Below the pieces are notes generated by a model. The model ran no database searches and had not been told where the DNA came from. It saw only the letters and a list, made by a program, of their open reading frames with translations. The position numbers and the translations under genes were made by a program. Below, in pieces: positions 2,032-4,733 of a stretch of DNA of 4,733 bases. Within the stretch, counting starts at the first letter, position 1. Each line of letters starts with the position of its first letter. This stretch comes from a virus. Taxonomy: Duplodnaviria > Heunggongvirae > Uroviricota > Caudoviricetes. The stretch lies in IMG/VR virus record IMGVR_UViG_648276653_000008; one strand, written 5' to 3'.

Positions 2032-2679
2032 TCAGCGACCAATCACCACAACCTGACCACCGTCCCCTTCGTCTGCCGTGCTGATCTCCTGAGAAGCCAC
2101 CCGCGACCCCACGCGCATTTCACCGTACAGAACGGGCAGAACATTGCCCTGGGCAACCATGTTATCCAGTGAGGAGAAATAGGTGTTCTGCTTACCGTTA
2201 TCCGTTGTCTGTGTACGGGGAGTTCTGGCTTTCGGTGCCAGCATCTGCGCCACACCGCCAAGGATCATACTGGCCCCCGCAGCATACATGCCCGATAAAG
2301 CCGCAGCTCCCAGCCAGCCTGCAGGGTTCCACCACGCCACTGCAATCAGCGCCGCACCCAGCACCGCCTGAAACACACCGCCACTTTTGGCTCCTGCCAG
2401 ACGCGGCACGATATGGATCACAGCACCATTTGCCAGCGGTTCATTAAGACGGGCTGATAATTCATTTTCGCCTGCATCACGCCCGGCAATGCGCACCTGA
2501 TACCAGCCCTCATTCAGTTTCTGGCGAAACGACGGAAGCTGCGTGGCCAGCGCCCGGATGGCTTCGGCCCCCGTTTTCACACGAAGGTCGATGCGGCGGC
2601 CAAATCGTTGTAAATCCCCGTAAAGGCAGATGCGTGCCATGCCCGGTGACGCCAGAGGGAGTGTGTGCGTCGCTGCCAT
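2032..2679 (-). CDS. I: Tail tip assembly protein I (215 aa, stop included)
   Basis: Track ORF 2032..2679 (-), MAATHTLPLASPGMARICLYGDLQRFGRRIDLRVKTGAEAIRALA..., ending GDGGQVVVIGR; recognised as lambda gpI family. Its 5' end overlaps the 3' end of K by 103 nt in another frame, as in lambda. SD-like GAGAGG at 2691..2696. Confidence 0.9.
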   Translation of the reverse strand: MAATHTLPLASPGMARICLYGDLQRFGRRIDLRVKTGAEAIRALATQLPSFRQKLNEGWYQVRIAGRDAGENELSARLNEPLANGAVIHIVPRLAGAKSGGVFQAVLGAALIAVAWWNPAGWLGAAALSGMYAAGASMILGGVAQMLAPKARTPRTQTTDNGKQNTYFSSLDNMVAQGNVLPVLYGEMRVGSRVASQEISTADEGDGGQVVVIGR

Positions 2680-3320
2680 TTGTCTGTATACCTCTCTCGT
2701 TTGCTCAGTTGTTCAGGAATATGGTGCAGCAGCTCGCCGTCGCCACAGTAAATGGCGGCATGATTCGGCACCGATGAACCAAAACAGCACAGCAGCACGT
2801 CGCCAGGCTGCGCCTCTGTCAGTGGGACACGGTAAAAACCCGTTGCCTCCATATTGTCAAGATAGAGATTCTGACCGTGACGCCACCAGTCATCCTCGCG
2901 ATGAAAATCCGGCATCTCAATCCCCGCCAGATGATAAGCATCCCGGAACAGCGTGTAACAGTCCGTCACCCCGTGCTCAAAGCGCCGCCCGGTGAGATGC
3001 GGCACACAGCGGAACTTATGAATCGTCCCCCGGCAGACCAGCCACCACGGCAAATCACTCTGCACCTGCAGCCGCCGGTCGGCCTCACTCAGCCAGGGCA
3101 GACCACCGGGGTGGCTGTGGACCAGCGCCACAATCTCACCCTGCATTTCTGCCTGCAGCCAGTCTTCCGGCGACATACGGAAATACGCCTCCGGCTCACC
3201 GGAGATATTCACGCAGGGGAAATATCTTTCCCCCTCCGGCGTGCTTACCACGAAGCCGCACGACTCCGCTGGCGCACATCGCCGGGCGTGCGCCAGAATC
3301 GCTGATTCTGTCTGTGTCAT
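2577..3320 (-). CDS. K: Tail tip assembly protein K, JAB/MPN plus NlpC/P60 two-domain protein (247 aa from first ATG; alternative internal start at 3176 gives 199 aa)
   Basis: Track ORF 2577..3320 (-). Contains JAMM-like motif H68-S-H70-x7-S78-x2-D81 (VHSHPGGLPWLSEAD) and an NlpC/P60-like Cys (TDCYTLF, C121) with downstream His residues (NHAAIY, ELLHHI). Recognised as lambda gpK. First ATG lies 5 nt after the L stop. Confidence 0.88.
   Translation of the reverse strand: MTQTESAILAHARRCAPAESCGFVVSTPEGERYFPCVNISGEPEAYFRMSPEDWLQAEMQGEIVALVHSHPGGLPWLSEADRRLQVQSDLPWWLVCRGTIHKFRCVPHLTGRRFEHGVTDCYTLFRDAYHLAGIEMPDFHREDDWWRHGQNLYLDNMEATGFYRVPLTEAQPGDVLLCCFGSSVPNHAAIYCGDGELLHHIPEQLSKRERYTDKWQRRTHSLWRHRAWHASAFTGIYNDLAAASTFV
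3188..3192 (-). promoter_or_regulatory. Shine-Dalgarno (GGAGG) upstream of the internal K Met49 ATG at 3176
   Basis: Minus strand reads GCCGGAGGCGTATTTCCGTATG; GGAGG is the complement of plus cctcc at 3188..3192, with an 11-nt spacer. The first K ATG at 3320 has no comparable SD. Confidence 0.4.
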
Positions 3321-3325
3321 GGGAT

Positions 3326-4024
3326 TTACTGCGAAAGTTTGTTAATGGAAAGGAAGCCGCCAAAGTTGCCGACGTTATTGCGGAACTTACAACCGCTCAG
3401 GCATTTGCTGCATTTATCCTTCGTGATATCGGACGTCGGCTGGTCATATTCATCCGCGACTGCCGGACCGTGATAACCGCACTCATCACCGCGATAGGTC
3501 CAGGTGCAGGTGTTGGCCAGCATGATACGTCCCGGAAAAACAGCACCGTCCGTTTCCGTCGGCGTGGACAGTACAAAAGAGGCACTCACCGCGCTCAGTT
3601 CGCTGCACTGCTCAATGCGCCAGCGGCTGATCACCTCCTGCTCCGGATCGGCGTCACTGTTTCCGTTGACGAAGTTCACCGCATCCAGAAAACGGGCGTA
3701 AACCTTACGCCGGACCACCGTTCCGCCGACCAGACTCTGCAGATCTTCCGCCATCCCGGTGACCATACCGTACAGGTTAGAAACCGTCAGCGTGGGGCGC
3801 GTACTGGTGCCTTTGCCATTCAGTTCAAAACCACTCCCCTGAATGGGATACGGCTGATACTGTCGCCCCTGCCAGGTGACCGGCTCACCTTTTTCGTTCT
3901 GCTCATTACAGAAAAAATAACGTTCTCCACCGACCTCTGTCAGATCGATTTCCCAGAGCACCACGCTGGCCGACTGCTCCGCACGGGTGCATTCATTCAG
4001 TGTTTCCTGCCGGATATCCTGCAT
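3326..4024 (-). CDS. L: Tail tip protein L (232 aa, stop included)
   Basis: Track ORF 3326..4024 (-), MQDIRQETLNECTRAEQSASVVLWEIDLTEVGGERYFFCNEQ...; length and sequence match my recollection of lambda gpL. C-terminal Cys cluster (C173, C182, C205, C208, C212). Start overlaps the M stop (TGATG). Confidence 0.93.
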   Translation of the reverse strand: MQDIRQETLNECTRAEQSASVVLWEIDLTEVGGERYFFCNEQNEKGEPVTWQGRQYQPYPIQGSGFELNGKGTSTRPTLTVSNLYGMVTGMAEDLQSLVGGTVVRRKVYARFLDAVNFVNGNSDADPEQEVISRWRIEQCSELSAVSASFVLSTPTETDGAVFPGRIMLANTCTWTYRGDECGYHGPAVADEYDQPTSDITKDKCSKCLSGCKFRNNVGNFGGFLSINKLSQ

Positions 4025-4353
4025 CAGTTCACCACCTGTTTAAACTCTGCGCTGAACTCAACACGCAACATACTGACCTGCGACGACCATTTTGCGCAGG
4101 TCACCTTTATCTGCCTGTAACCATAAGGCGGCGTCCACAGAAAGGCCTTCCAGCCCCCGTGCTCAGCCAGAAACGACTCCAGCGCCGTGGCCTCCTCACG
4201 GGAGACAGACAGCGTCACGCTGTACGTTTTCAGGTCAGCGTTCAGCCCGGCAGGCGCACGCTGGGAATAGCCATCACCAAAGCGCACCTCCCTGACGGAA
4301 GGAGCAGATGTCACATCCATCCCGGGTTTCACTTTCCAGCGGAAGGTTTTCAT
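4024..4353 (-). CDS. M: Tail tip protein M (109 aa, stop included)
   Basis: Track ORF 4024..4353 (-), MKTFRWKVKPGMDVTSAPSVREVRFGDGYSQRAPAGLNADLKTYSV...; 109 aa as in lambda gpM. Strong SD GGAGG (plus 4360..4364) 6 nt upstream of the ATG. The ATG overlaps the H stop (ATGA). Confidence 0.92.
   Translation of the reverse strand: MKTFRWKVKPGMDVTSAPSVREVRFGDGYSQRAPAGLNADLKTYSVTLSVSREEATALESFLAEHGGWKAFLWTPPYGYRQIKVTCAKWSSQVSMLRVEFSAEFKQVVN
4029..4037 (-). promoter_or_regulatory. Shine-Dalgarno-like element for L (AGGTGGTGA), inside the 3' end of M
   Basis: Minus strand reads AACAGGTGGTGAACTGATG; one mismatch to the extended SD AGGAGGTGA, 4-nt spacer. Confidence 0.4.
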
Positions 4354-4733
4354 CGTCCACCTCCGGAGAACAGACCACCATCGCGCATCTGCCCGGTCAC
4401 AACATCCATTGCCGCCTTACGGGCTACGTCATAAACAGCCTTCAGCGCCTGTGGCCCTATCTGACCGTTCGTGCCGTCGTTGTTAATCACCACATGGTTA
4501 TTCTGCTCAAACTTCCCGGACGCCTGCGAGCGGCTGTCCGCCATGCTGCCCGGTGTACCGACATAACCGCCGGTGGCATAGCCGCGCATCAGCCGGTAGA
4601 GATTCCCCACGCCAATCCGGCTGGTTGCCTCCTTAGTGAAGACAAATTCACCACGGTGAACAATCCCCGCTGGCTCATATTTGCCGCCGGTTCCCGTAAA
4701 TCCCCCGGTTGCAAAATGGAATTTCGCCGCAGC
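4350..4733 (-). CDS. H: Tail tape measure protein H, C-terminal 127 codons plus stop (3'-partial in window; gene starts beyond position 4733)
   Basis: Manual minus-strand translation in the frame of track ORF 4350..4610 shows no stop between 4611 and 4733: AAAKFHFATGGFTGTGGKYEPAGIVHRGEFVFTKEATSRIGVGNLYRLMRGYATGGYVGTPGS...MRDGGLFSGGGR*. The track's M at 4610 is a GTG valine codon inside a longer frame. Position immediately upstream of M fits lambda gene order; sequence resembles the lambda gpH C-terminus as I recall it. Confidence 0.85.
   Translation of the reverse strand, partial: AAAKFHFATGGFTGTGGKYEPAGIVHRGEFVFTKEATSRIGVGNLYRLMRGYATGGYVGTPGSMADSRSQASGKFEQNNHVVINNDGTNGQIGPQALKAVYDVARKAAMDVVTGQMRDGGLFSGGGR
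4360..4364 (-). promoter_or_regulatory. Shine-Dalgarno for M (GGAGG, 6-nt spacer to ATG), inside the 3' end of H
   Basis: Minus strand reads CCGGAGGTGGACGATG; core GGAGG is the complement of plus cctcc at 4360..4364. Confidence 0.6.

Follow-up and report, generated by a model that had tools for sequence, protein, structure and literature searches.

The closest described relative of the gene considered here is gene I of phage lambda. Its product, gpI (223 residues; PDB 8IYK, 8IYL, 8K35, 8XCG and 9E7M), is likewise encoded between genes K and J, with an overlap of 103 nucleotides with K, and consists of an N-terminal domain not resolved in the structure, followed by the helices H1 and H2, a plug at residues 159-175 and β-strands threaded through gpJ (Ge and Wang, PMC11101478). 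The plug is trimeric and is located under the C-terminal coiled coil of gpH (PMC10721106, PMC12617516). In the closed tip lambda gpI is visible from residue 101, but once LamB has bound it is visible from residue 167 only (PMC11101478). Both H1 and H2 are predicted by TMHMM to be transmembrane and their insertion into the outer membrane has been proposed (PMC11101478); gpI has elsewhere been described as having 'strongly predicted transmembrane domains' (PMC12617516). Iyer et al. (PMC1779556) predicted that the ubiquitin-like domain is cut off behind its C-terminal glycine by the JAB domain of gpK and, according to a 2025 meeting summary, the Davidson group has demonstrated this cleavage and a role for it in ordering assembly (PMC12908700). 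In the published model for lambda three copies of gpI lie inside the closed tail tip, with H1 and H2 hidden and the channel blocked by the plug domains under the tape-measure coiled coil, the JAB peptidase of gpK having stripped the ubiquitin-like domain from gpI during assembly. Binding of gpJ to LamB then opens the tip and loosens the plug, and H1 and H2 exit, probably into the outer membrane. Even in lambda this final step is a proposal that derives from a loss of density.

Two further systems bear comparison, in both cases via the literature. [quoted passage not shown] THIP is a distant homologue, however, and belongs to a tailocin, not a phage. The plug domain of phage T5 pb3 is again a trimeric plug of a siphophage tip for which contact with the outer membrane after opening has been suggested (PMC10721106); here the likeness is one of structural analogy, as the T5 plug is not a separate protein but part of the baseplate hub protein, into which it is inserted as a domain, and lacks the ubiquitin-like domain.

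The DNA that we have analyzed, referred to in what follows as the window, is a 4,733 nucleotide stretch from a tailed phage of the class Caudoviricetes (IMG/VR record IMGVR_UViG_648276653_000008). Its features are collected in Table 1. Gene I lies between K, which carries JAB and NlpC/P60 domains, and J, so that the layout established from the order of the reading frames and from Pfam is that of lambda, and the K/I overlap (2577-2679) is 103 nucleotides in both. M, L, K, I and the N-terminal part of J are each an unbroken open frame, with 229 of 232 residues in L and 644 of 657 in the J N-terminus identical to those of lambda. The identity of I is established by a match of residues 14-97 to the Pfam family PF06805 (Lambda_tail_I; E=1.3e-23, with a score of 83.7 bits where the cutoff is 23.8) and by HMMER matches of the whole protein, residues 1-215, to chain I of PDB 8iyk (lambda gpI, E=1.1e-108) and of residues 131-214 to the lambda gpI chains of 9e7m (E=1.3e-45). 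The original prediction held that the DNA derives from a relative of lambda rather than from reference lambda, and this is correct: the nucleotide identity over aligned bases is 93.5%, and the two I proteins have 179 identical residues and differ by 8 gap positions, all of them in the hydrophobic hairpin described below.

Table 1. Features of the window (positions counted from its first letter; residue numbers are those of I unless stated otherwise)
Feature	Position	Strand	Basis
Lambdoid tail-tip block H-M-L-K-I-J	whole window	minus	ORF list, Pfam
H, C-terminus	stop at 4350	minus	
Tape-measure protein H, C-terminal ~35 residues (coiled coil on the gpI trimer in lambda)	4353-4457	minus	translation, alignment
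M	4024-4353	minus	
L	3326-4024	minus	
K, 247 residues	2577-3320	minus	Pfam PF14464 (E=6.2e-14), PF00877 (E=2.4e-13)
I (tail tip assembly/insertion protein gpI), 215 residues + stop	2032-2679	minus	ORF list, Pfam, PDB 8iyk
J, first 657 codons	start 1971	minus	
Ubiquitin-like (β-grasp) domain, N-terminal, residues 14-97	2389-2640	minus	Pfam; fold assignment PMC1779556
Gly100-Gly101, end of ubiquitin-like domain, proposed gpK cleavage site	2377-2382	minus	alignment; PMC1779556, PMC12908700
Hydrophobic helix H1, residues 102-117 (VFQAVLGAALIAVAWW)	2329-2376	minus	hydropathy, AF2 DSSP, homology to lambda H1 (PMC11101478)
Hairpin turn N118-P-A-G121, flanked by Trp116, Trp117 and Trp122	2317-2328	minus	helix break in AF2 model
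Hydrophobic helix H2, residues 122-149 (WLGAAALSGMYAAGASMILGGVAQMLAP)	2233-2316	minus	hydropathy, DSSP 122-146, homology to lambda chains
C-terminal plug/β-strand domain, residues 150-215	2035-2232	minus	63/65 residues as in lambda; solved gpI chains; PMC10721106, PMC11101478
Mosaic (allelic replacement) patch relative to lambda, residues ~50-143	2250-2535	minus	sliding 100-nt identity, codon segments

Several smaller observations concern the limits and the reading of gene I. Annotated starts vary among records, which give a 215-residue form (beginning MAATHTL), forms of 200 and 202 residues, as would fit a start at Met14 (codons 1-14 occupy 2640-2679 of the window), and in mEp460 (locus L245) a form of 182 residues that begins past the K stop. 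As codons 1-34 overlap K, conservation cannot pinpoint the true start. Open reading frames of 62-92 residues cross the gene in other frames, at 2169-2447 and 2183-2371 on the plus strand and at 2043-2261 on the minus strand; the gene itself is well supported and the sequence is G+C-rich, and we take these frames to be spurious. The last of them equals the out-of-frame I peptide of phage mEp332 (PV340541; locus L002, 2543-3172), where a deletion of one nucleotide near codon 153 (approximately 2215-2225 of the window) causes the annotated 209-residue product to read the plug domain out of frame.

Downstream of I, in the I-J intergenic region (1972-2031), the minus strand at approximately 1993-2012 can form a perfect 8-bp stem, AAACCGCC-UCAG-GGCGGUUU, which is followed by UUGUCGUUU. 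The phage 434 record marks this stem-loop as a terminator; its fold z-score is only -1.9, and a scan of 1850-2750 for consensus terminators and promoters called nothing, this element included.

The two I proteins share a common architecture, consisting of the ubiquitin-like domain, a Gly-Gly pair, two hydrophobic helices and the plug domain. A Gly/Ala-rich hydrophobic segment had originally been predicted at 2230-2391; these positions encode residues 97-150 of I, and the peptide quoted for them is exact. Residues 99-149 form a run of 51 positions without Asp, Glu, Lys, Arg or His, a length that is attained in only 49 of 100,000 composition-preserving shuffles of I, and Gly and Ala together make up 45% of the tract as opposed to 22% of the remainder of the protein. 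Kyte-Doolittle means over 19 residues peak at 1.54 and exceed 1.0 for residues 94-129 and 121-151, and on the Wimley-White octanol scale H1 is hydrophobic at +5.8 kcal/mol and H2 marginally so at +1.6 kcal/mol. In an AF2 model computed from an alignment of 12 sequences DSSP places helices at residues 102-117 and 122-146, boundaries that are only indicative in view of a mean pLDDT of 46 and values below 50 over residues 95-215. The tract aligns with residues 101-157 of lambda gpI, and within it residues 131-149 fall opposite the helix with which the modelled lambda chains of 9e7m begin, and likewise opposite the hydrophobic segment 137-152 described for lambda gpI (PMC10721106). A small-xxx-small glycine zipper in H2 was considered and rejected; 22% of shuffles of the tract reach the chain length of 6 found in the window, and the corresponding lengths are 8 in lambda and 3 in a class of relatives with a 44-residue hairpin.

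The original prediction left two descriptions of the segment side by side, one or two transmembrane helices or a flexible linker. The first is supported, in the form of two transmembrane-like helices, by the published lambda structures (PMC11101478). According to the second the tract would be a glycine-rich, low-complexity tether between the ubiquitin-like and C-terminal domains, with a length that is free to drift. Iyer et al. have been cited in its support, and it would be in keeping with the low AF2 confidence and with the lengths found in close relatives, which range from 44 to 56 residues. That spread, however, consists of discrete sequence classes and not of a continuum, and cryo-EM resolves two helices at this very place in lambda (PMC11101478). 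The long uncharged run, with its rarity among shuffled sequences, is moreover hydrophobic and not polar. It is also retained in remote relatives: in a set of 70 full-length representatives, mostly 35-60% identical and found by searching 1.84 billion cluster representatives, the median run is 51, and it persists in homologues at 35-45% identity. We thus regard a drifting linker as very unlikely. The run is 51 in the window and 59 in lambda, so that the length of the segment studied here is typical of the family and it is lambda that is the long variant.

Where the ubiquitin-like domain ends, the sequence is under evident constraint. Alignment A1 shows no variation in the motif AGAKSGG and alignment A3 none at G100 and G101, and over codons 85-104 (GAVIHIVPRxAGAKSGGVFQ) 19 of 20 residues are those of lambda although 15 of these 19 codons differ synonymously. 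The preservation of residues despite changed codons points to strong purifying selection on the end of the domain and on Gly-Gly, and the near-saturation of synonymous change indicates that the lambda and window alleles are old lineages. If gpK cuts here as reported for lambda, the hairpin would form the N-terminus of mature gpI, which would start at approximately G101/V102.

The putative processing partner looks complete from its sequence. K is unbroken, with a JAB/JAMM peptidase domain (residues 3-104) followed by an NlpC/P60 domain (residues 111-224) as defined by Pfam, and its translation includes a Glu at position ~19 (AESCG) and the motif HSHPGGLPWLSEAD, residues that we take to fit the JAMM active-site pattern. 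A separate point emerges for lambda itself. Reference lambda is one G short (GGAGGC-TATTTCC) relative to both phage 434 and position 3186 of the window, at K codon ~45; the site is at 1757-1775 of locus L001, equivalent to approximately 14256-14274 of NC_001416. Because of the missing G the first ~45 codons of K, and with them the start of the JAB domain, are shifted out of the reading frame, with the result that lambda K is annotated as 199 residues as opposed to 247. Among 245 loci the form without the G occurs in just two records, both labelled 'lambda' (NC_001416 and OR974322), and the gene is in frame in 161; the missing G is either a real mutation of the laboratory strain or a propagated sequence error.

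The 223 residues that had been given for lambda gpI agree with the annotation of NC_001416, where I occupies 14773-15444 (672 nucleotides), and the difference of 8 codons from the 215 residues found here does fall in the hydrophobic tract, as had been anticipated. In protein (MAFFT), DNA (MAFFT) and global pairwise alignments, as well as in the HMMER alignment with chain I of PDB 8IYK, all gaps lie between window residues 119 and 131. Measured from KSGG to APK the hairpin thus has 46 residues in the window and 54 in lambda. Approximately 4 residues are absent at the turn, which reads WW-NPAG-W in the window and FF-TAGATLAA-WG in lambda, and approximately 4 more from the start of H2, which is shorter by about one helical turn; the lambda hairpin FFTAGATLAAWGAAIGAGGMTGILFSL is not present in I of the window.

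It had been supposed that the difference is an in-frame loss within a repetitive tract, and the simplest version of this idea is that the 215-residue form arose recently from a lambda-type gene of 223 codons by a slippage deletion of 24 nucleotides. The net difference is indeed exactly 24 nucleotides, in frame, and the tract is compositionally biased. Yet TRF, run with a minimum score of 30, returned no tandem repeat for the window tract or for lambda I, a repeat search in I finding only short two-copy matches of 9-13 nucleotides. The gaps, moreover, are at least three in number, split as 12+10+2 nucleotides or as 4+3+1 residues. They lie within ~280 nucleotides that are only 54-68% identical to lambda and that contain many synonymous changes, and the WWNPxGW form of the turn recurs in distant homologues. 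With no repeats, divided gaps and diverged surroundings a slippage origin is effectively refuted, and we consider it extremely improbable.

What the comparison reveals is the replacement of one allele by another. At its two ends (49 residues at the N-terminus and 81 at the C-terminus) I is nearly identical in the window and lambda, whereas residues 50-134 belong to a separate allelic lineage. In sliding windows of 100 nucleotides the identity to lambda is 58-71% in the patch as compared with 90-100% on both sides, and by codons it is 98% for 1-34, 68% for 50-84, 67% for 85-104, 54% for 105-134 and 90-97% from 135 onward. Judged from these sequences, the patch represents an alternative allele of long standing, gained by mosaic recombination, and not the product of a recent deletion. 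Patches of lesser divergence from lambda are also seen elsewhere in the window, at 4334-4500 (the H C-terminus and M N-terminus, with 72-89% nucleotide identity), in the region of which M has 12 substitutions, and at 2734-2930 (the C-terminal half of K, 80-89%).

The allele is a common one. NCBI lists the exact 215-residue protein (P0001) as 'tail assembly protein [Escherichia coli]'; its 90% cluster comprises 647 members, and sister clusters at 95% identity add thousands of sequences. Copies of the 321-nucleotide patch with 100% identity are present in at least 7 complete E. coli genomes, and ~3,500 records match it at more than 90%. Phages mEp460, cdtI, PhiR49_2 and the Salmonella phage SPF_0923 (96.5%) have the same 648-nucleotide gene with a 46-residue hairpin, at 92-96.5% nucleotide identity to the window; these genes and those of the P0001 cluster differ from that of the window by point substitutions only, and the translation of mEp460 gives a 215-codon frame with the turn WWNPVGW.

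Among close relatives the KSGG-to-APK distance falls into classes of 44, 46 (the window), 47, 54 (lambda) and 56 residues, with turns of the type IWMPG in the 44-residue class, WWNPxGW in the 46-residue class and FFTGGASLAAWG in the 54- and 56-residue classes, along with hybrids; the 47-residue class is one such hybrid, joining an H1 of the 44-residue type to an H2 of the lambda type. Over 238 IMG/VR loci the 54-residue class is always found with a second half of the ubiquitin-like domain of the lambda type, and the 44- and 46-residue classes share the other type. In the distant set a WWNPxGW-type turn is present in 15 of 70 representatives and a lambda-type FxTGGASxAAWG turn in 11 of 70. The databases also hold rare homologues with tracts of 30 or 33 residues and with frameshifted or duplicated I genes; variants P0082, P0090, P0115, P0120 and P0018 include a duplication of residues ~50-148 (290 residues), the 30- and 33-residue tracts and the 47-residue hybrid.

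Broken and truncated genes of this sort, together with the fact that the carriers are mostly prophages in E. coli chromosomes, might suggest a defective prophage in which the shorter hairpin represents an allele that is in decay and has lost its function. We consider this hardly credible, given that M, L, K, I and the N-terminus of J are all open, that the allele class is highly conserved over thousands of genomes, that the run length of the hairpin is the family median and that the allele is carried by mEp460, which we assume to be plaque-forming since it was deposited as an isolated phage. In all likelihood, then, the segment is the H1-turn-H2 hydrophobic hairpin of a lambda-family gpI, in a widespread alternative allele from an old mosaic lineage. 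By analogy with lambda the 46-residue hairpin would act as its 54-residue counterpart does, and the three tryptophans that frame the turn would be well suited to a membrane interface, should the hairpin insert. The exact protein and the role of the segment in lambda were already known; the allele is common and the feature an ordinary one. A literature search found no paper on variation among transmembrane alleles of lambdoid gpI.

It is natural to ask whether the hairpin classes, which in terms of sequence exist and are old, differ in what they do. The hairpin might be an exchangeable module below the level of the gene, with classes that are functionally distinct, perhaps in relation to the thickness or composition of the host outer membrane or as a means of dodging exclusion systems that block injection. 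We think this unlikely. As gpH contacts gpI in lambda (PMC10721106, PMC12617516), the C-terminal coiled coil of gpH, which has 8 substitutions relative to lambda, was examined for co-variation with the hairpin. The window itself pairs its non-lambda hairpin with an L and a J N-terminus that are close to those of lambda. Obligatory coupling was rejected on the basis of 138 IMG/VR loci, in which the 44-, 46- and 54-residue classes each pair with all three families of gpH C-terminus; the sample is biased toward the best matches for each query, and the skew in frequencies that it shows is compatible with linkage. Were the modular reading true, it would explain why the ~100 nucleotides of the hairpin are the most divergent part of a tail-tip block that is otherwise ~95% conserved.

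As a discovery the allele carries little weight, but it is of modest practical value, since natural hairpins of 44 to 56 residues amount to ready allele swaps with which the insertion into the outer membrane that has been proposed as a step of lambda DNA delivery may be probed.
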